DNA of 32,000 nucleotides from Burkholderiales bacterium UBA2463 (lineage in GTDB: Bacteria; Pseudomonadota; Gammaproteobacteria; Burkholderiales; Burkholderiaceae_A). The notes under the pieces are model-generated. The model had not been told where the DNA came from, did no database searches, and was given only the letters and a program-made list of their open reading frames with translations. The DNA lies in NCBI GenBank assembly GCA_002342295.1, contig DDPR01000014.1, forward strand, positions 1-32,000. The letters are read 5' to 3'. Shown here one piece after another: positions 1 to 8,615 of this stretch. Within the stretch, counting starts at the first letter, position 1; every line of letters begins with the position of its first letter. The position numbers were made by a program, and so were the translations under genes.

Positions 1-131
1 TGTACTCTCCCTAGTAGTAGCGTTGTTGAAGATCCCACTCTAGCCTATCACTTGCCTAGTGTCAATGCCTACTTGTGCTAATCATAGAGTTCAGCTACGA
101 TTAAAAGTCACAAACTACAGTAGGAGCTCTA

Positions 132-695
132 ATGTTTAAGATGTTTTTTGAGTATGAAGTAGGCAGAGAAGCCAATGACTTAGTTCAATCTCTATCATTG
201 CTGTTTCTTACTCCTACTTCAAACATCATTGCTGATGATGTCTGGGCTACTGGTATAAGCAGAAAAAGGAAAATAGAAAACTTATCCATTAACGAGCTAC
301 TTACATACACAGTTTGTAGAATTAAAGGTGTTCCATCTATGACTGTAGTTGATTTCAAAAAACCCTTTAAGTCGGATGATAAGTTTATAGATAGTTTCAA
401 AGATAATTATCTTGGAACAGTTAGAGAAAAAGTTTCTAAAGCTGATCTTGTGAAACTAGCAAAATTACAGTCTAAACTTGAATATAACGGCTACATAAGT
501 AACTGGCTTAATCCACGCTTTCCAAATCTTAAAAGTAGTTTTGAAGATGCTGGTCTAACTGAACAAGAATGTAAGGAACTTGAGAAACTATATAAAGTCT
601 CAAATAAGCCAGTAGATGATTGGATAAAATCCAAAAGAGATGATATAAAAAATGAGATAAAACCTCTTACTAAATTCATTGTAAGAGGTTTCTAA
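132..695 (+). CDS. Hypothetical protein (187 aa), island cargo
   Basis: ATG at 132 is preceded by AGGAG (122-126) with a 5-nt spacer. A 187-codon ORF is unlikely by chance in AT-rich DNA. I recognise no motif. Confidence 0.6.
   Translation: MFKMFFEYEVGREANDLVQSLSLLFLTPTSNIIADDVWATGISRKRKIENLSINELLTYTVCRIKGVPSMTVVDFKKPFKSDDKFIDSFKDNYLGTVREKVSKADLVKLAKLQSKLEYNGYISNWLNPRFPNLKSSFEDAGLTEQECKELEKLYKVSNKPVDDWIKSKRDDIKNEIKPLTKFIVRGF
661..690 (-). terminator. Perfect 10-bp stem / 10-nt loop hairpin, probable intrinsic terminator for the minus-strand recombinase operon, embedded in the last codons of the convergent 132-695 ORF
   Basis: AACCTCTTAC (661-670) and GTAAGAGGTT (681-690) are exact reverse complements. 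On the minus strand the hairpin starts 7 nt after the recombinase stop (697-699) and is followed by TTATCTCATTTTTTAT (reverse complement of 645-660). Confidence 0.55.
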
Positions 696-696
696 A

Positions 697-1272
697 TTAA
701 ACTAGTTCAACTGCCTTACGCATCATGTCATCACTAGCATCAATGTACACCATTGTTGTTTGTGCCGACTTGTGACCCATTAGCTTTTGTAGAACTCTAA
801 TGCCCACGCCTTTGCTACTGATTTGAGTAGCAAAAGACCTACGCATTGAATGGCTTGATGCGTTATCAATTCCGCAAGCTGAAAACAAGTAGTGCCAATA
901 CTGTGTAAGTGTATTAGGACTAAATCCATCACTACTCTTTTTCTGCGAGTAAAACAGCTTACGCTTTCGGTCTGTAATGTCCAATGTCTTTACATAAGCA
1001 TCTAGCTCTTTGTACAGCTTATCGCTAATGTAAATTGTTCTAGCTACATTACCTTTTGTAATGTCGGCCTTGAGTAGAATTTCACGCTTAACATTGCCTT
1101 CGCAATCTACAGCATCTTCAATGCGTAAAGCACTAGTCTCCCCTACCCTAGTGCCAGCACAGTACATTAAATGAAGCATAGCCCTATTTCTAGCACTATG
1201 CTTGCGTGTAGCTATGTAATCAAGTACTCGTCTAAATTCTTGCTGTGTTAATGTCTTAGCTTGCTTTGCCAT
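697..1272 (-). CDS. Small tyrosine recombinase/integrase (about 191 aa, essentially catalytic core only)
   Basis: Catalytic signature is readable: Arg in AGTRVGE, H-x-x-R in HSMRRSF, His in MGHKS, Tyr in TTMVYID. I prefer the ATG at 1272 (MAKQAKTLTQQEF...) because GAGGTG lies 6 nt upstream. The track start at 1362 has no SD. Confidence 0.85.
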   Translation of the reverse strand: MAKQAKTLTQQEFRRVLDYIATRKHSARNRAMLHLMYCAGTRVGETSALRIEDAVDCEGNVKREILLKADITKGNVARTIYISDKLYKELDAYVKTLDITDRKRKLFYSQKKSSDGFSPNTLTQYWHYLFSACGIDNASSHSMRRSFATQISSKGVGIRVLQKLMGHKSAQTTMVYIDASDDMMRKAVELV

Positions 1273-1577
1273 CTTGCTCACCTCAAATGTAATGTTTTCT
1301 ACATTTTTAGTGTATTGTCTTGTATTAGAAATTCCTACCTCTTTTTTGTCTTTTTGTGTCATAGTGTTTTCTTGTTCAAAATCAACGACTTAGCTGTTAT
1401 TTTCATCAAAATATAACAAAATGTGCTATTTTCTTATATTTGCTTGTTAGCGCCGTTGCTATAGTGCCACACTTATTTAACTGTTTGCGTACAAGCCCTA
1501 CAAGCTGTTGATACGCTGTTTTGCTGTCCTAGTATTCAGCGTACAGTTTTAAGCGTTTGTAGCTTGTTCTAGTGCGT

Positions 1578-2030
1578 CTAATTGCTTTCTGTAATATGTA
1601 TAGCGTTTACAAAATCTATTATTTCAATGTCAGCAATATTAATTTCTTCATAATTAACTACAATTTTGCTCTTAATTAGCCATCCATCTATTCCATCTTC
1701 TTCACTAATCTTATTTCCCTCTTCATCTTCACCATAGTCGTATCTTTGTATTTCAAAAGTCCACTTTAATTGATGTAGATTTCCAGTTAATGTTAAATTA
1801 GCATTTTCCATCATAAAGTCAGGTGATAGAACAAAGTTTATGTCACAGTACCTATCTTCTTTATTAAAGTCTACTGACCATATCTGTACACACGATAATT
1901 TAGGTCTAAAATACGCATTACGCTCTATAGCTTCTTCTACAGTAATAACATCTTGCGTATCACCACTAAGTGCGTGTATTGCTTTAATTGATAGTCTATA
2001 TAAAGTTGACTCAAAGACCCTAGCATCCAT
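1578..2030 (-). CDS. Hypothetical acidic protein (150 aa)
   Basis: ATG at 2030 with GAGGTG 5 nt upstream. By my count there are 29 Asp/Glu and 13 Lys/Arg. It is co-directional with the HUH-like gene upstream and the recombinase downstream. No recognisable motif. Confidence 0.6.
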   Translation of the reverse strand: MDARVFESTLYRLSIKAIHALSGDTQDVITVEEAIERNAYFRPKLSCVQIWSVDFNKEDRYCDINFVLSPDFMMENANLTLTGNLHQLKWTFEIQRYDYGEDEEGNKISEEDGIDGWLIKSKIVVNYEEINIADIEIIDFVNAIHITESN

Positions 2031-2100
2031 ATCAACACCTCGCTATGTAGTTGATGATATTATATAACACCTAGCTTATTTTTGGCAAAGCTACGCTAAT

Positions 2101-2121
2101 TAAGCACTCATTAAGTGCTTA
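2101..2121. repeat. Perfect 8-bp stem / 5-nt loop hairpin followed by tandem TTAACC(A/G) heptamers
   Basis: TAAGCACT (2101-2108) and AGTGCTTA (2114-2121) are exact reverse complements with loop CATTA. TTAACCATTAACCG follows immediately. It lies 46 nt downstream of the HUH-like gene stop. Confidence 0.5.
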
Positions 2122-2166
2122 TTAACCATTAACCGCAAGCGTCAACTAAGGACTGGAGTGCTTAGA

Positions 2167-2724
2167 TTAGTAAAAGTAAAGTCTATTCAACTCTAACTTA
2201 TCAATCTTTTTTGTAATGTATCCCGACCAACCTTCTGTAATCTCTTCAACTTTATATCTATACATCTTGTCCTCACTATCTTTGTCGGCACGATAGTTAG
2301 GATTGCTCATTTCAAATTCACCACTCAACTCTATAGCTTTTACAATCTGTTTATGAAAGTCTTCGCTTGTGTAGCTATCTGGCTTTTGTAGCAAGAAGTG
2401 AGTGTGTAAATCAACACAGCTACTGTTATCTCCTTCTATGCTTGCTATAGCTACTAACTTCTTCCCATCACGCTTATATGCGTTTTTTAGAACAAGTTTA
2501 TTAATCAAATGTACAAGTCTAGAGTTTGCTCGTTCTAGCTCATCTTTTGTTAAGTGTCTGTACACCTTACCATCAACAACATAGCGTGACTTTGGAACAT
2601 ATTTGTAAAACACCTTCTTTGGCATAACAGTAAGACCTTGTGTCAATCCAAGTTCTTTAGCACTTGTCAGCCACTTCACTACTTCTAATCTGTTATCTTT
2701 TTTAGTTACTAATTGTTCAAGCAT
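2167..2724 (-). CDS. HUH-superfamily-like protein (185 aa): putative rolling-circle Rep / Y1 endonuclease, YagK/inovirus-Gp2-like
   Basis: Motif H-T-H-F-L-L at residues 107-112 (codons 2406-2389) and G-Y-I-T-K-K with Tyr169 (2220-2218) and Lys172, 62 residues downstream. This matches the HUH ... Y-x-x-K spacing of Y1 HUH enzymes. ATG at 2724 with AGGTG 5 nt upstream. Motif-level call only. Confidence 0.45.
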   Translation of the reverse strand: MLEQLVTKKDNRLEVVKWLTSAKELGLTQGLTVMPKKVFYKYVPKSRYVVDGKVYRHLTKDELERANSRLVHLINKLVLKNAYKRDGKKLVAIASIEGDNSSCVDLHTHFLLQKPDSYTSEDFHKQIVKAIELSGEFEMSNPNYRADKDSEDKMYRYKVEEITEGWSGYITKKIDKLELNRLYFY

Positions 2725-2900
2725 CTTTACACCTATATTTTTTGTATAGATATATTTATGCTTTATATAAGGATAGTGTAAATTTTTATGAAAAAGTTAT
2801 ATTAATCAACAAGTTACGGCAGATTTTGAAAGTATTTTGGTAGGAAAAATGGCTAAAAGGTATTACATTAACTATTCCTTTAACTACTTTGGAGTATGAA
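2725..2900. promoter_or_regulatory. AT-rich divergent intergenic region, presumed promoters for the minus-strand (HUH-like) and plus-strand (2901) genes
   Basis: A 176-nt, very AT-rich spacer lies between two divergently oriented genes that both have strong SD sequences. I could not pick unambiguous -35/-10 hexamers. Confidence 0.35.
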
Positions 2901-3344
2901 ATGGCTACTATGTCCGCACTTAAACTTGTTACAAGCAAGAAACAATCTACTGTTAGCCCAATAGTAAATCGCCGATTGAAATTGCTTGCTAAAGTACAAG
3001 AGCAAATTGAGCTTTGTACAGCTAAGAAAGATGGAAATACTTACGCACCAAAGCGTCTAAAAACATTCACAGATAAGGTGACTGGAGAACGCAAAACTAT
3101 TGAAACAGTTAAGCGTGTTAAAGAATGGTTCTGGATTAGCGACACAGGTAAGATTCATCTTGCTATCAAATATGGCTCTAAGACGCTTATGCTAAACAAG
3201 AAAGGTGCTAATGCTATTGAAGTTAGCAATGGTGATGAGCTAATTAGCACACTTAAACACATCGCAGGCTCTATTGAAAATGGTGAACTAGATGAGTTTA
3301 TTAATGATGTTAGTAAAGCTACAAGAGATAGCTTCGTAAAGTAA
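2901..3344 (+). CDS. Small conserved hypothetical protein (147 aa), resembles a family seen in proteobacterial genomic islands
   Basis: GGAG (2891-2894) lies 6 nt before the ATG at 2901 (MATMSALKLV...). The track start at 2889 is a TTG. The pattern MSALKL...RR.KL...Q..L....G..Y.P...KT..D..TGE...KRVK.WFW matches from memory a family I believe is Pfam DUF6641. This is unverified. Confidence 0.6.
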   Translation: MATMSALKLVTSKKQSTVSPIVNRRLKLLAKVQEQIELCTAKKDGNTYAPKRLKTFTDKVTGERKTIETVKRVKEWFWISDTGKIHLAIKYGSKTLMLNKKGANAIEVSNGDELISTLKHIAGSIENGELDEFINDVSKATRDSFVK

Positions 3345-3358
3345 TATTGTTTATCAGC

Positions 3359-3395
3359 AAGTATCCTTTTCTATAAATATAAGAAAAGGATACTT
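3359..3395. promoter_or_regulatory. Perfect 13-bp inverted repeat with 11-nt AT loop; the right arm contains the SD of the 3399 ORF
   Basis: AAGTATCCTTTTC (3359-3371) and GAAAAGGATACTT (3383-3395) are exact reverse complements with loop TATAAATATAA. AAGGA (3386-3390) is the only SD for the ATG at 3399. Confidence 0.55.
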
Positions 3396-3398
3396 TGT

Positions 3399-3725
3399 AT
3401 GAGACTATTTGAATTTACAAATGCTGAAGAACAGCTTAAGCTATTACAACTAATATTTGATACTACTTTTAGCACAATTAGACAGCAAGCTGAACAACAA
3501 GCTAGAGAAAAAGCAGAACAGGCTAGAGTAGCTAAGTTAAAGCCTAAGCGTAAATCTAGCATCAAGCCTAAGTCCATACCAAGTGTTAAAGCACCACCCC
3601 CACCAAAGCCCCCTACTAAGCCTAGTACATCTACTGCCAACCCTAACCAACCCCTAGCTAAATCTAGTCAACCCCCTAGTAATTTATCTAGTCACCCTAC
3701 CCAACCCCCCAACAAATATACCTAA
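3399..3725 (+). CDS. Coiled-coil plus Pro/Lys/Thr/Ser-rich low-complexity protein (108 aa as read; probably frameshifted, see findings)
   Basis: ATG at 3399 with AAGGA 8 nt upstream. The N-terminal part is helical and Gln/Glu/Ala-rich, followed by a KPKRKSSIKPKSIPSVKAPPPPKPPTKPS... tail. Similar composition continues in the +1 frame to 3879. Confidence 0.5.
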   Translation: MRLFEFTNAEEQLKLLQLIFDTTFSTIRQQAEQQAREKAEQARVAKLKPKRKSSIKPKSIPSVKAPPPPKPPTKPSTSTANPNQPLAKSSQPPSNLSSHPTQPPNKYT

Positions 3726-3990
3726 TACCCTACCTAATAAAACAGTAGCCCCCACAGCTTTACCCCACATAAAGCCCATACCCCCTATCAAGCCTACTGT
3801 GGCTACCAAGTACCCTATTAAACCCAAACATAATAAACATCTACACCCCTTAGAAGATGACGATACAGATAGCTACTAGAAATGGGTTCTAGCTTGCTAA
3901 AAAATTGGGCTACGGTTTTTTTAGGTGAAGTACTTAAACTTTTGGGGTGGTGATTTTTTACCTATACCCCCATCACTTTTGCTGTAAATG

Positions 3991-4019
3991 CGTCTTTCGG
4001 CGTTAAAGACGGGTTTTTT
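3991..4019 (+). terminator. Rho-independent terminator closing the plus-strand 2901-3879 gene pair
   Basis: CGTCTTT (3991-3997) and AAAGACG (4005-4011) form a perfect 7-bp stem with loop CGGCGTT, followed by GGTTTTTT. A second imperfect hairpin (GGGGTGGT ... ACCtatACCCC, 3944-3970) precedes it. Confidence 0.6.
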
Positions 4020-4081
4020 ACCCATTTTTAATAGTAAATTACAAAACCATGCTCATGGTGACGACAGGCATAGTTAAAATA

Positions 4082-5344
4082 CTATTTGGGAATAATTATT
4101 CCATCTATTGTGTAATAGCCAGCCATTGCTTGAGTCGTTAATATATCTTCATCAATATGGTAATAAGTTTTCTCAATTTGAGTCCTACTTGTTCCACACA
4201 TATCAGCCACATCTTTATAGCTTAGTCCTGCCTTAATTCTGTTCGTTATAAAGTAATGTCTAAAGCTATAAGGTACTAACTTTCTCTTTCCTATGTCTAT
4301 TTTCGCCTCTTCTAGTATCTTCTTAAAATGATGTGTTACTGCTCTTTGACTTACAACATTTACTCCATTAAAACTAAACACATAGTTTTCTGCGAATGGC
4401 TTCTTTGTATGTGTAGGAGTAGTTAACTTGAATAAGTTATCAAAATACTCTATATCTCTTATCTTTACTACACGAGGCTTTCTTACTTTACTTGTTTCTT
4501 TTCTAACACTTATCTTTACAAAATCTATCTCTTCTTTGTTTATTGTTTCATTAGAAAAAGTAATGTCTTTCCATTTCAATTGCTTTTGCTCACCTGTTCT
4601 TAATCCACAAATTGAAGCTATTAATAGATAGTGACCAGACAGTACTCTTGCTTTATTTTCTAAGTCGTTTAAGTCCTTCATTGCCTCTTCTATGTATTTT
4701 GGTATAGCGGCTCTAAAAGCTCTTACTTCTTCATCTGTAAATGATGATCTTCTTACAGCTTCTTCTGGTGTATTTCTAATTGATATTGTTTCAAAGTCAA
4801 ATCCATCAATATAAACTTCACCTTTTTTGTGAAGCCATTTCATCATCGAATTTATAGTACTTTGCTCATTAGCTATGGTAGATAGTGCTGTAGTTTTTGT
4901 AGCACTTGGTTTTTCTCTTGCCTTAGCATATTCAGCACAGCTATCTCTATCTAGCTCTTTTAGCTTTGTATCACGCTCTATAAAGTCTAGCCAATGCTCT
5001 AAATGTGCTCTTATAGTTCCGTATCTACCCTTAACTATGCTCTTAGTTGTTCTACTATCAATGTGTCCTTTTCTATACTCTAAGTACATTAATACACCAT
5101 CTTTAGCTGTCCTAGAGTAGTATGTTCTTCCACTATCAGTAACAGACTTAATACTGACAAAGTGTTTTTTAGCTCTTTCTGTAGCTATATCAACATTCTT
5201 TGTCTTTAAGCTAAGTCTCACATACCTACGCTCTTTTTCTAGCCAATAGCGAAACTGCCATATGTCACCCCTTTTGTAGATAACAGCTTCTTCGTAAATT
5301 GGTATTTCTTCACCATCTACAAATGTCTTTTTCTTAAGCGTCAT
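4082..5344 (-). CDS. int: Tyrosine-type site-specific integrase (420 aa), att-proximal integrase of the island
   Basis: Arg in CGLRTGE. The C-terminal segment YSFRHYFITNRIKAGLSYKDVADMCGTSRTQIEKTYYH aligns without gaps to XerD [38 protein letters not shown]. I prefer the ATG at 5344 (MTLKKKTF...); the track start at 5416 is a TTG. Confidence 0.88.
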   Translation of the reverse strand: MTLKKKTFVDGEEIPIYEEAVIYKRGDIWQFRYWLEKERRYVRLSLKTKNVDIATERAKKHFVSIKSVTDSGRTYYSRTAKDGVLMYLEYRKGHIDSRTTKSIVKGRYGTIRAHLEHWLDFIERDTKLKELDRDSCAEYAKAREKPSATKTTALSTIANEQSTINSMMKWLHKKGEVYIDGFDFETISIRNTPEEAVRRSSFTDEEVRAFRAAIPKYIEEAMKDLNDLENKARVLSGHYLLIASICGLRTGEQKQLKWKDITFSNETINKEEIDFVKISVRKETSKVRKPRVVKIRDIEYFDNLFKLTTPTHTKKPFAENYVFSFNGVNVVSQRAVTHHFKKILEEAKIDIGKRKLVPYSFRHYFITNRIKAGLSYKDVADMCGTSRTQIEKTYYHIDEDILTTQAMAGYYTIDGIIIPK

Positions 5345-5425
5345 TTTTAGGCTTGGGTAGTTACAGTTTTGAGTTGCTACTTTGCTGTGTAGCAAGTTGT
5401 GTAAATGTAACTTCAAATAGCACCT

Positions 5426-5448
5426 AAACGCAAGTGTTTTTTGCGTTT
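5426..5448. repeat. 8-bp inverted repeat in the integrase-guaA spacer
   Basis: AAACGCAA (5426-5433) and TTGCGTTT (5441-5448) are exact reverse complements with loop GTGTTTT. Two TTTGTGT(G/A)A 9-mers follow at 5446-5454 and 5457-5465. Confidence 0.5.
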
Positions 5449-5503
5449 GTGTGATTTTTGTGTAACTTTAAGCCCTTATAAATCAAGCACTTAGGCTCAA
5501 TTA

Positions 5504-7150
5504 CTACTCCCACTCAATCGTCGCAGGGGGTTTTCCAGAAATGTCGTACACCACGCGATTAATACCGCGTATCTCGTTGATGATGCGATTTGAGACCTGG
5601 GCTAAGAGGGCATGGGGCAGTTGTGCCCAATGCGCCGTCATGAAGTCACTGGTGACCACCGCGCGCAGCGCCACAACCCATTCATAGGTGCGTCCGTCTC
5701 CCATGACACCGACCGATTTGACAGGCAGAAAGACAGCGAACGCCTGACTGGTGAGCTCATACCAGGAGCGGCCGACATCGTGGGCCTCGCAGAGTCCGGC
5801 ATGGGCGTCGGCCTCAGTTGCTCGGGTCTGACGCAGCGCCTGAGTGAACAAATCGTCCGCGCGCTGAAGGAGGGTGACATACTCCGGATGGATCTCGCCC
5901 AGAATACGAACGCCAAGACCGGGGCCGGGGAAGGGATGCCGGTGGACCATATCGGCTGGAAGCCCCAAAGCCAACCCAAGCGCCCGCACCTCGTCCTTGA
6001 ACAACTCGCGCAGAGGCTCCAGTAGCTTCAGGTGAAGGGTCTCGGGAAGCCCACCCACATTGTGATGGCTCTTGATACTTGCAGCCTTCTTGCTCTTCGC
6101 GCCGGCGGACTCGATGACATCGGGATAGATGGTTCCCTGCGCGAGCCAGCGGGCGCGGCTGAGTCTGGCAGCCTTCTCTTGGAAGATCTCAACAAAGAGT
6201 CGTCCAATCGTCTTGCGTTTGGCCTCGGGGTCGCTGAGCCCCCGAAGGGCCTCAAGAAAACGATCGGCTGCATGGACATGGATGACCCGAACCCCAAGAC
6301 CCCGGGCAAATGTCTCCATCACCTGCTCTGCCTCGTTCAACCGCAAGAGACCGTGATCCACAAAGACGCAGGTCAGGCGATCTCCGATGGCCTTGTGAAC
6401 GAGCGCCGCTGCAACGGAAGAATCGACTCCGCCGGAGAGGCCAAGAATGACCTCATCGGAACCGACCTGATGCTGAATAGACTCAATGGCCTCTTGCGCA
6501 TAGTCCGGCATATTCCAGTCGCGGCCCGCACCACAGATTCCGTGTACGAAACGCTCAATGATGTCCCGACCCTTCTTGGTGTGAGTGACCTCCGGATGGA
6601 ACTGAAGGCCATAAAAGTGTCGAGACTCATCTGCCATGCCCGCGATGGGGCAGCTCGGTGTGGAGGCCATGAGCCGGAAGCCGTCTGGAAGCTCGGTGAC
6701 CTTGTCACCATGGCTCATCCAAACATCCAGAAGGCCATGCCCCTCGGGCGTTCGGTGATCCTCAATATCCGTTAGAAGTTGAGTGTGGCCGTGCGCCCGC
6801 ACCTGCGCGTAACCGAACTCGCGGACCTTTCCGGTCTCCACAAGACCCCCCAGTTGCTCGGCCATGGTCTGCATTCCGTAACAGATGCCAAGCACGGGAA
6901 CCCGTCGCAGAAAAACGGCTGTTGGGGCTCGGTGGGTCTCTGCCTCGGTCACGGACATGGGGCCGCCCGAGAGGATGATTCCCTTGAGGCTATCGACCTC
7001 CCCGACTTGCCCGAAGCGATGAACAAAGTCATCCGACACATCACAGGGATGAATCTCGCAGTACACGCCGGCTTCACGCACACGGCGCGCAATCAGCTGG
7101 GTGAGCTGAGAGCCAAAGTCAAGAATGAGAATCTTGGCGTGGGAAGTCAG
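5504..7150 (-). CDS. guaA: GMP synthase (glutamine-hydrolysing)
   Basis: Conserved N-terminus [21 protein letters not shown], the [11 protein letters not shown]-pyrophosphatase motif and the C-terminus [15 protein letters not shown]. The start is uncertain: there is no ATG/GTG/TTG between the guaB stop and the conserved N-terminus. I list the CTG at 7150. The track start at 7315 overlaps guaB and I reject it. Confidence 0.93.
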
Positions 7151-7151
7151 A

Positions 7152-8615
7152 CTAATCAGCCCGGTAGTTTGGTGCTTCCTTCGTGATCTGCACGTCGTGG
7201 ACGTGAGATTCGCGAATGCCCGCTGAGGTGATCTCGACGAATTCGGCCTTGGCATGCAGCTCATCGATGGAGCGACATCCGCAGTAGCCCATGCTCGATC
7301 GAAGCCCGCCCGCAAGCTGAAAGATGATCTGCTTCACGCTGCCCTTGTAGGGTACGCGCCCCTCAATACCCTCTGGAACGAATTTGTCCGCGCCCGGGCT
7401 CTGCTCCTCTTGGAAGTAACGATCGGCAGATCCAGCCTGCATGGCGCCAACAGAGCCCATTCCTCGGTAAGACTTATAGGAGCGACCCTGAAAGAGAACC
7501 ACCTCTCCCGGAGCCTCCTCGGTCCCAGCGAACATGCCGCCCATCATGACGGTGCTGGCCCCGGCGGCCAGCGCTTTGGCAATGTCACCTGAGAATCGGA
7601 TACCGCCATCAGCAATGAGTGGAACCCCGCTACCAGCGAGGGCGTCTGCCACATTTGCAATCGCCGAGATCTGGGGAACTCCAACGCCCGCCACGATGCG
7701 CGTGGTGCAGATCGACCCCGGACCAATGCCCACCTTCACTGCATCGGCGCCGCTATCGAGCAGAGCGCGCGCTGCGTCGGCGGTGGCAATGTTGCCCCCA
7801 ACAACCTGAACCTGCGGGTACTTGGACTTCACCCATGAGACTCGATCGAGCACGCCTCGAGAGTGACCGTGGGCTGTATCAACCACGATGACATCGACCC
7901 CTGCCTCCACCAAGAGCGCGACTCGCTCGTCTGTGCCCTCTCCGACCCCCACCGCAGCCCCGACAAGAAGCTTGCCCTGCTCATCGCGGGCGGCATGGGG
8001 ATGCTCAATGCCCTTGAGAATATCTTTGACAGTGATGAGGCCTCGGAGTTGAAAGTCCTCGGATACGACCAGCACGCGCTCCAGGCGATGCTTGTGCATG
8101 AGGGCCTTGGCCTCCTCAACGGAGGCGCCCTCTGGCACTGTTACGAGGCGCTCTTTGGGGGTCATGATGGCGCGAATCGGCTGGTCGAGCCGACTCTCAA
8201 AGCGAAGGTCTCGGTTGGTCACAATACCCACGACATGGCCGTTTTCCACCACGGGTAGGCCTGAAATTCGGCGCTCCGCGCAGAGGGTGAGAACCTCTCG
8301 CACCGACATGGTTGGGCTGATGGTGACCGGGTCCTTGACAACACCCGCTTCAAAGCGCTTTACGCGTGCAACCTCCGAGGCCTGAGCCATCGGGGGGAGA
8401 TTCTTGTGGATGATGCCGATCCCGCCCTCCTCCGCAAGGGCGATCGCCAGCCGCGCTTCGGTGACGGTGTCCATAGCCGCCGAGACCACCGGGAGGTTGA
8501 GGTAGAGAGACCGCGTGAACCGAGAGACAAGAGAGGTGTCTTTCGGGAGGATCTCCGAGCGCGCGGGAACGAGCAGCACATCGTCGAAGGTCAGGGCCTT
8601 TTGAAGCACGCGCAT
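7152..8615 (-). CDS. guaB: IMP dehydrogenase
   Basis: 487 aa, [18 protein letters not shown]..., tandem CBS region, the [11 protein letters not shown] active-site loop, and a C-terminus typical of IMPDH. ATG at 8615. Confidence 0.97.

Follow-up and report, generated by a model that had tools for sequence, protein, structure and literature searches.

A predicted small HUH Rep nuclease and a catalytic-domain-only tyrosine recombinase linked in a family of small integrative islands

Several described mobile elements combine site-specific integration with an initiator of rolling-circle replication. pSAM2, which belongs to the actinomycete integrative and conjugative elements (AICEs), and ICEBs1 each have an integrase, an excised circular form, and an HUH/Rep-type initiator, and they replicate by rolling circle after excision. 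In streptococci, integrative and mobilizable elements (IMEs) and integrative and conjugative elements (ICEs) also combine Rep-type initiators or relaxases with site-specific integration (PMC5357655, PMC5812530). Plasmids of the pIGRK/pHW126 type carry a rolling-circle initiator, a cis site on the same strand, and then a gene for a tyrosine-recombinase-like protein of ~220–240 amino acids (aa) that has neither arm-binding nor core-binding domains (PMC8152469). The island SGI1 has an integrase and a second tyrosine-recombinase-like gene, mpsA, with a cis site directly upstream (PMC6414798). Here we describe a locus that resembles each of these in part: an AT-rich island at the left-hand end of a 32,000-nucleotide stretch of DNA from Burkholderiales bacterium UBA2463 (contig DDPR01000014.1, positions 1 to 32,000). 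We call this whole stretch the window, and coordinates are window positions unless another locus is named.

On the minus strand of the island lie a gene for a small predicted HUH endonuclease (Rep), a gene for a short tyrosine recombinase, and two conserved non-coding elements, which we call E1 and E2. We favor, with a probability of roughly 0.6, the reading that these form a backbone for rolling-circle replication and recombination in an integrative element with defense genes as cargo. Elements of this general kind, which are integrative, have a rolling-circle initiator, and may or may not have a tyrosine-recombinase-like mobilization protein, are already known. Like pSAM2, ICEBs1, and the IMEs, the island has an integrase at the 3' end of a conserved gene, a circular form, and an HUH or Rep-type initiator. 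It differs from them in its hosts, which are Gram-negative freshwater Betaproteobacteria; in having no transfer genes (neither an FtsK-like Tra nor a coupling protein); and in having a Rep that is a bare nuclease domain of 185 aa, an extra recombinase with only the catalytic core, and a DUF6641 protein as a partner. The order of initiator, cis site, and recombinase is that of pIGRK and pHW126, but here the pair lies inside an integrative island that has a separate integrase, DUF6641, and defense cargo, and no plasmid Rep in PLSDB is detectably similar to that of the island. The likeness to SGI1 is one of layout. MpsA has ~320 aa and needs MpsB, which resembles a core-binding domain, whereas no MpsB-like gene is found here, and SGI1 does not have an HUH Rep of the island type.

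The 185-aa protein is well supported as an HUH/Y1 Rep-type nuclease, both by its motifs and by its modeled fold, and the preliminary description of this DNA, which had called the protein HUH-like, was right in this respect. Motif I is L31-T-V-M-P, motif II is H107-T-H109, and motif III is Y169-I-T-K172. Motif I, then the HUH motif, and then the tyrosine is the order found in rolling-circle initiators. H107-T-H109 is invariant in 25 close and 27 distant relatives (alignments A1 and A5), as is W166-x-x-Y169-I-T-K172, which lies 60 residues C-terminal of the HUH motif (the order of Reps and not that of relaxases). Across close and distant members, the invariant set consists of E-G, H107-x-H109, and W166-x-x-Y169-x-x-K172, with a preceding strand of the pattern (L/T)-T-(V/L)-(M/T). 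We found 72 close homologues, and a profile search led to 293 representative clusters, nearly all with proteins of 150–220 aa. The gene has a Shine-Dalgarno (SD) sequence (TAGGTG-N5-ATG, with the ATG at 2724).

An AlphaFold2 (AF2) model of Rep (pLDDT 78, pTM 0.75) matched 59 viral predicted structures in BFVD with E ≤ 1e-3 and probability 1.0. The matches that have names include Microvirus replication initiators, “replication gene A,” “replication associated protein,” and parvovirus NS1. In the PDB, the best folds are the nuclease domains of NS1 from minute virus of mice (MVM) and of Rep from adeno-associated virus (AAV). Among Pfam families, PF23343 (REP_ORF2-G2P) was touched by five of 25 relatives of Rep (the best at 0.0048), and a distant member of the family, P0161, scored above the gathering score (31.2 versus 27.8 bits). 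Motif order and fold are shared with the initiators of single-stranded DNA (ssDNA) phages (G2P-ORF2 and Microviridae gpA; PF23343), but the window Rep is below the Pfam threshold, has a single tyrosine in its YxxK motif, has just 185 aa, and belongs to a non-viral island. No relatives of Rep were found in PLSDB plasmids, GenBank phages, or IMG/VR.

The second protein of the pair belongs to PF00589 (1e-29 over residues 37–211; 103.9 bits versus a cut-off of 27.1 bits). It matches the catalytic halves of XerA and XerD at 3e-30 and 6e-28, with XerC also among the best matches, and its best match in the PDB is XerA from Pyrococcus (4a8e, residues 94–274; 6e-21). All six active-site residues (R72, K103, H171, R174, H197, and Y206) are present and aligned with those of XerA. 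The N-terminal, SAM-like core-binding domain of the Xer proteins is missing: the matches span positions 84–261 of the 263 in the XerA model and 93–283 of the 290 in the XerD model, the scores against Xer models are 98–106 bits versus cut-offs of 220–330, and the 30–36 residues ahead of the catalytic domain leave no space for such a domain. This agrees with the preliminary description, which had identified a core-only recombinase that is distinct from the integrase near the attachment (att) site. Like the Xer proteins and the short “site-specific integrases” of plasmids, it has a catalytic domain that is closest to XerA and XerD, and it has homologues of ~190 aa on 473 plasmids, some of them beside partition or replication genes (for example, ParB/Rep in Legionella); it differs from them in having a 30-aa N-terminal extension that is specific to the family.

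This extension changes where the gene begins. The preliminary description had placed the recombinase at 1272–697, and an internal SD (GAGGTG-N6-ATG, with the ATG at 1272) would indeed give a protein of 191 aa. However, the reading frame stays open for 30 codons upstream of 1272, and in 15 of 15 related loci the amino acids that these codons specify are conserved, with the motif K-x-V-G-I-x-x-x-R-x-Y...I-T-F. The codons are also covered by all 120 of the 120 best database homologues and by tblastn alignments, and in other clades, a proper SD precedes an ATG or TTG at the upstream position. Because these codons are conserved as protein, the recombinase probably starts at 1362 (221 aa) rather than at 1272.

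When we scanned metagenomes with a second clade of Rep (~30% identical to the window Rep), we obtained 80 loci. The recombinase was downstream of Rep on the same strand in all 51 loci that had enough downstream sequence, and a divergent DUF6641 gene was adjacent to Rep in all 65 loci that had enough upstream sequence. The linkage also held in 17 of 17 loci from an earlier set. Where the flank exists, Rep and the recombinase never occur without the divergent DUF6641 gene. The general order is a DUF6641 gene divergent from Rep, a gap, and the short recombinase, and in longer loci, a large integrase lies beside a conserved gene of the host, namely guaA in most of them and secA in one group. In L001, L008, L014, L015, and L017–L019, the large integrase adjoins guaA, and the order guaA, integrase, DUF6641 divergent from Rep, and recombinase is conserved. 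In the secA clade (L002–L005), Rep is 53% identical and the integrase only 24%, a low value that suggests an exchange of integrase modules on a conserved core of Rep and recombinase.

The preliminary description had grouped Rep, the recombinase, and an acidic open reading frame (ORF) between them as a self-contained unit of three genes. That the three genes run in the same direction, each with an SD, was correct, but the unit is not self-contained: DUF6641 always adjoins Rep and the recombinase, and the integrase is just beyond it in longer loci. As for whether the genes co-occur elsewhere, Rep and the recombinase always do (51 of 51 loci), whereas the acidic ORF was present in only 3 of these 51 loci, which belong to one clade.

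Window 1 to ~5516 is the guaA-proximal portion of a small AT-rich integrative element. Its GC content is 35% (positions 1–5503), as compared to 59.6% for the remaining window, and the boundary between island and host is the stop codon of guaA (5504–7315, minus strand). An integrase lies beside an att site that derives from the 3' end of the target gene, and relatives have the repeats at the ends and the circles with attP junctions that are expected of such an element. The large integrase is outside the three-gene group yet is part of the same element. The 11-bp att core (TGAGTGGGAGT) is duplicated at the island ends in L011, L001, L014, L015, L017, and L018; the window shows attL alone, and the island extends past the left edge.

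Two relatives were found as circles. L011 is an integrated 7.9-kb island between 11-bp repeats (TGAGTGGGAGT) of the final codons of guaA. L012 (7,999 bp, from another assembly) is the L011 island as a closed circle, with a terminal overlap of 127 nt, and it is joined exactly at TGAGTGGGAGT. L093 (8,602 bp) is a second circle, again with a terminal overlap of 127 nt and with an attP junction that is built in the same way. L012 and L093 are from separate assemblies and share only ~74% identity, and they are direct evidence of natural excision. The island has also moved between genera: window 1–5520 corresponds to 7207–11573 of L014, from Polynucleobacter sp. Latsch14-2, and the island cores have 87–91% DNA identity, although the GC content of the hosts is 46% for Latsch14-2 versus 59.6% for the window host, and GuaA is only 70% identical. 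Because the cores are so much more similar than GuaA, we infer a recent crossing between distantly related Burkholderiales. The circles, the attP junctions, and this crossing bear out the proposal in the preliminary description that the genes are the replication or mobility machinery of an integrative element.

Islands of this family are AT-rich and 5.5–13 kb long, and the cargo of the relatives is mostly defense: type I and type II restriction-modification (R-M), AbiJ, and SMODS. At the cargo loci that are listed in Table 1, we found an N4/N6 methylase with an AlwI-type enzyme, a MamI-type R-M system, and Dam with N4/N6 methylases, as well as type I R-M with Mrr, Dcm with an AAA protein, AbiJ, and SMODS. 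Some islands have a second cargo region between the integrase and DUF6641.

E1 and E2 are conserved more strongly than the proteins. E1 has a mean column identity of 72% across loci whose Reps are 30–94% identical. It comprises two tandem copies of GGTTAAT, a hairpin at 2101–2121 (TAAGCACT-TAATG-AGTGCTTA), and an invariant 3' flank, TTAATTAGCGTAGC (TTAAT-K-R-GCG-N-AGC). Within the hairpin, the outer pairs (AAGC/GCTT) are fixed, and three inner pairs have compensatory double changes. Substrates of HUH enzymes are usually laid out as a fixed hairpin with an invariant single-stranded stretch after it. The left half of E1 varies with the clade of Rep and the right half does not, and this variation is what we would expect if the left half were the binding site of the cognate Rep. 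For E2, 35 distinct sequences align without gaps at a mean identity of 78%, and the arms are practically invariant in all clades. E2 is a candidate for the site of the short recombinase (a res site or an oriT) or for a single-strand origin.

Sites that match the consensus for integration host factor (IHF) accompany both recombinase genes. There are two matches to TAAGTNNTTGAWTT in the 32 kb, versus 0.14 expected, and both positions recur in relatives. The assignment of the motif near the att core to IHF is putative and by consensus only; the pairing of the motifs suggests that the two recombinases are under shared architectural control. The short recombinase gene also has a hairpin on either side. 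At the position of the upstream one (1409–1441), other clades have a strong AAAACCAAAGC...GCTTTGGTTTTTT hairpin. The downstream one (659–692) has a predicted energy of -15.1 kcal/mol (z = -4.6), none of 200 shuffled sequences folds as well, and it lies within the last 12 codons of the convergent gene at 132–695. The preliminary description had noted a perfect hairpin here with a tract of T residues, and its stem can in fact be extended.

Between E1 and E2 is a variable slot. In most islands, it is empty and appears as an A-rich gap of ~400 nt, while in ~20% of islands it holds small ORFs other than the one in the window, such as divergent relatives of the acidic protein, an ankyrin-repeat protein, small membrane proteins, or a 190-aa protein. 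The ankyrin-repeat protein was the only match in a Pfam scan of the slot ORFs. The gap is a small insertion hotspot. The -35 box of the slot gene in the window is inside the conserved E1, and its -10 box arrives with the ORF cassette; loci without a slot ORF retain the TTGCC but do not have the -10 box. It appears that every cassette comes with a -10 box and relies on the conserved TTGCC for the -35 box. Because the 150-aa ORF has a promoter-like site of its own, the three minus-strand genes are probably not one operon.

The ORF that occupies the slot in the window is as acidic as the preliminary description stated (pI 4.37; 29 aspartates and glutamates versus 13 lysines and arginines). It is preceded by an SD (GAGGTG-N5-ATG, with the ATG at 2030), and, to judge by its 57 homologues, all of which are at least 59% identical, it is a real and conserved gene. 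Most loci in the clade to which the window belongs do not have it, and one homologue is on a plasmid-like contig, beside a restriction enzyme. An AF2 model of the protein (pLDDT 83) had no fold match in the PDB (the best had E = 0.58), and the protein had no match in Pfam, PHROG, NCBIfam, or PADLOC. Its charge and position might fit an anti-restriction or other early-expressed accessory role, which is only a guess.

Table 1. Coordinates of features in the window and, where a locus is named, in related islands.
Feature	Position	Strand	Remarks
Small HUH/Y1 Rep-type endonuclease, predicted, 185 aa	2167–2724	-	Motifs, fold, weak PF23343 matches in relatives
E1, conserved non-coding element	2075–2166	-	Directly 3' of the Rep stop codon; candidate Rep origin (double-strand origin, dso)
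E2, conserved non-coding element	1463–1575	-	AACAAGCTACAAACGCTT ... AACAGCTTGTAGGGCTTGTA, imperfect inverted repeat with a variable, hairpin-forming center
Short tyrosine recombinase, 221 aa	697–1362	-	Xer-like catalytic domain only, plus conserved 30-aa N-terminal extension
Acidic ORF, 150 aa	1578–2030	-	Optional cargo; occupies the variable E1–E2 slot
Promoter-like TTGCCA-18-TATAAT for the slot gene	2059–2088	-	11 of 12 consensus positions
Borders of the slot cassette	2031–2074, 1576–1577
Slots in relatives	L001 10686–11132; L058 3245–3721; L063 4262–5786; L033 642–1214
Terminator-like hairpin, then a T run	1409–1441	-	Between E2 and the recombinase gene
Intrinsic-terminator hairpin after the recombinase	659–692	-	12-bp stem, 10-nt loop, T-rich tail
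IHF-consensus motif	5480–5493	-	Reverse complement AAATCAAGCACTTA fits WATCAANNNNTTR; beside the att core and the integrase promoter
Second IHF-consensus motif	1379–1392	-	Reverse complement AAATCAACGACTTA; 17 nt upstream of the recombinase ATG
Divergent intergenic region, 176 nt	2725–2900		24% GC; between the Rep ATG and the SD-preceded DUF6641 ATG (2901)
DUF6641 gene, divergent from Rep	2901–3344	+	PF20346 1.9e-13; phrog_31551 1.6e-17
108-aa ORF	3399–3725	+	pI 10.4; between DUF6641 and the integrase
Large att-proximal tyrosine integrase	4082–5416	-	PF00589 7.7e-16; phrog_1 integrase 3e-34
attL core TGAGTGGGAGT	5506–5516	-	Final codons of guaA (which ends ...IEWE*); right-hand end of the island
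Gene for convergent 187-aa basic protein	132–695	+	44% identity to the L006 counterpart (tblastn)
Cargo in relatives	L001 13082–15659; L002 4211–8631, 11687–12628; L009 1191–1973, 7980–14946; L011 5744–7350; L025 4816–6715

If the rolling-circle reading is correct, then the large integrase would excise the island as a double-stranded circle. Rep would bind the clade-specific left half of E1 and the hairpin, and it would make its nick in the invariant sequence that immediately follows the hairpin on its 3' side, priming rolling-circle replication of the circle. The short recombinase would act on E2 with the aid of IHF, which would bind a short way upstream of the recombinase gene. It might resolve multimers and keep the episome monomeric, as is assumed for its short relatives on plasmids, or it might nick E2 as a MobK-type relaxase. 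The acidic ORF would be one of many interchangeable passengers in the slot, and the larger defense cargo (R-M, AbiJ, and SMODS) would lie beyond the recombinase. A precedent is the repR-oriT-mobK region of pIGRK, which consists of a rolling-circle rep, a cis site, and a tyrosine-recombinase-like gene with only the catalytic domain (PMC8152469). In MobK, the tyrosine is followed by a C-terminal tail, whereas the extension here is N-terminal. We rank multimer resolution slightly above a role as a MobK-like relaxase because the catalytic domain is a strong match to the ordinary Xer type and because of the many short homologues on plasmids; the two roles are not exclusive.

Several observations weigh against the rolling-circle reading. 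A bare HUH domain of 185 aa, with no helicase, would depend wholly on the helicases of the host. The window Rep does not match any Pfam family, or any other library, on its own, and its fold matches in the PDB are weak (E of 4e-3 to 3e-2 and TM of ~0.4). We did not recognize a nick site or a nick consensus in E1, and the nick position that we propose is a guess because the loop of the hairpin is not conserved. When E1 and E2 are folded as single sequences, either as RNA or as DNA, they do no better than shuffled sequences (z ~ -1), and the RNAalifold consensus for E2 contains invariant pairs only and no covariation. Because the folding is not above that of shuffled sequences, the functional case for E1 and E2 rests on their conservation. 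A closed circular contig proves the attP junction and not replication, and the third-position GC skew, which we examined as a mark of unidirectional replication, has the same sign throughout L093 and the window island but is mixed in L012.

A possible but doubtful alternative is that the genes serve mobilization. Either the recombinase would be a MOB_M/MobK-type relaxase that nicks an oriT made up of E2 and the IHF site, or the HUH protein would be a Rep-type relaxase that acts at E1, and in both cases the excised DNA would be transferred through a type IV secretion system supplied by a conjugative element in the same cell. Such mobilization would be compatible with rolling-circle replication. 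MobK, TcpM, and MpsA are tyrosine-recombinase-like relaxases, and MobK and MpsA do not have canonical DNA-binding domains (PMC8152469, PMC6414798). MobK is a proven relaxase, and the oriT of pIGRK lies between the rolling-circle rep and mobK, which is the order seen here (PMC8152469). MOB_M proteins are reported to be the commonest chromosomal relaxases, with 96% of them near an integrase (bioRxiv 10.64898/2026.01.13.699239), and relaxases of this type beside integrases are reported to be frequent in islands (bioRxiv 10.64898/2026.01.13.699239; PMC6414798). In the island, a conserved inverted-repeat element and an IHF-type motif are directly upstream of the recombinase gene, the element has moved between genera, and defense genes cluster alongside, as reported for regions near oriT. 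On the other hand, MOB_M proteins are described as being missed by standard profiles, whereas this recombinase scores as an ordinary Xer-type domain (1e-29 to 3e-30). TcpM is the only MOB_M member that we compared, and the similarity is generic (24% identity and a pairwise E of 5e-4, as for any tyrosine recombinase). Also, no island has conjugation genes, and no helper is known in these hosts. Much less probable is a satellite of an ssDNA phage, one of the options in the preliminary description, in which Rep would make single-stranded circles that a helper filamentous phage packages via a hairpin signal, as with RS1 or TLC and the CTX phage. REP_ORF2-G2P is the sole Pfam family that was touched, the best fold matches are to initiators of ssDNA viruses, and the islands are small, cross genera, and have conserved hairpins and a circular form. 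But HUH Rep folds are common to plasmids and viruses, and therefore the fold match is no sign of a virus. None of the loci has phage genes (that is, structural, assembly, morphogenesis, or RstB/RstC-like genes), neither IMG/VR nor the GenBank phages contain a relative, and integration is by the island's own large integrase and not by XerCD at dif. A filamentous prophage or a satellite of one has little or no support here.

We give still less credence to the idea that the recombinase is a FimB/FimE-like invertase, or a recombinase that captures cassettes, which shuffles the adjacent cargo, and that the HUH protein is functionally unrelated to it. Its size and missing N-terminal domain are reminiscent of FimB and FimE, variable cargo directly follows the gene and a variable slot directly precedes it, and an IHF-type motif is nearby, as at fimS. 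The match to the NCBIfam invertase model (PRK09870) is weak, though, at 34 bits (2e-8) versus a cut-off of 221 bits, and near the gene we found no segment the size of a promoter between inverted repeats. Furthermore, Rep and E2 accompany the gene in every case, regardless of which cargo is present, and the slot cassettes have no recognizable recombination sites at their flanks. Last, the preliminary description had raised the idea that 661–2900 could be a smaller element nested in the island. Such an element would be independent, for example a transposon or an IS91/IS200-like HUH element. The region is compact and has its own nuclease and recombinase, but this idea is already contradicted and we find it hardly credible: no terminal direct or inverted repeats flank the region; it is always beside DUF6641, with the integrase beyond in longer loci, in a constant position and orientation; and both circular relatives are closed at the attP of the island and not at the ends of the module.

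The other genes of the island complete its layout. Going from guaA, the order is the integrase; two plus-strand genes, namely the 108-aa ORF, which is proline-rich, and the DUF6641 gene; the divergent region; the three minus-strand genes; and the convergent gene. A search of PDB sequences with the DUF6641 profile found no relative. The divergent region is exactly as long as the preliminary description had given and is indeed AT-rich. It presumably holds the promoters and operators for Rep and DUF6641, and it contains no strong sigma-70 consensus. The C-terminal half of the protein from the 108-aa ORF is rich in proline, serine, and asparagine and is encoded by DNA with three imperfect repeats of ~19 nt (3636–3708); relatives have different small ORFs at this position. 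The convergent 187-aa protein had no family match in any library that we scanned. At its position, L001, L006, L011/L012, L014, L022, L024, and L025 have a gene for a protein of 159–223 aa, and only the one in L006 was matched by sequence. We also found no tRNA gene, no RNA family in an Rfam scan of window 1–5600 (E ≤ 1), and no defense system in a PADLOC scan of all seven island proteins.

Near the left edge of the window, we considered GAGTGGGA at 33–40 as a second att core or attR and rejected it, as L022, a contig that is 94% related, aligns through this position into another gene. Because that alignment continues past 33–40, GAGTGGGA is part of the -10 box of a promoter, and the island extends off the window. 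A promoter-like TTGACA-17-TAGAGT is present at 37–65 on the minus strand, followed by an SD (GGGAGAG), and is directed out of the window. In L022, an ORF begins just past this promoter, so more island cargo lies to the left of base 1.

In the literature that we searched, no paper described this combination, DUF6641, or these islands in Polynucleobacter. By that measure, the novelty is in the combination of a bare 185-aa HUH family that has not been described, DUF6641, a core-only Xer-like recombinase, two conserved candidate origins with IHF-type sites, defense cargo, and freshwater betaproteobacterial hosts. A bolder and rather unlikely reading is that the islands are an unrecognized class of minimal, self-replicating “defense shuttles” in freshwater Betaproteobacteria. 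In these, a bare HUH nuclease domain and a tyrosine recombinase with no core-binding domain would be coupled on adjacent origins: Rep would make single-stranded circles; the recombinase would act on a folded or IHF-bent E2 as a resolvase, a relaxase, or a single-strand integrase; and DUF6641 would be a dedicated third component. If true, this would imply bursts of copy number and spread across genera without transfer genes.

An unannotated family of 150–220-aa proteins (the 293 representative clusters) can now be assigned a class of function, as small HUH Rep nucleases, with DUF6641 and a core-only tyrosine recombinase as their obligate partners. The islands also offer a natural test case for whether tyrosine recombinases that have only the catalytic domain and that lie beside integrases act as resolvases or as MOB_M-like relaxases. 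Concrete cis elements, namely E1, E2, and the IHF-type motifs, are now at hand for studying how islands that have neither a relaxase nor transfer genes replicate and spread. More broadly, this is a large family of very small islands that move restriction-modification, Abi, and CBASS-type genes among freshwater genera.

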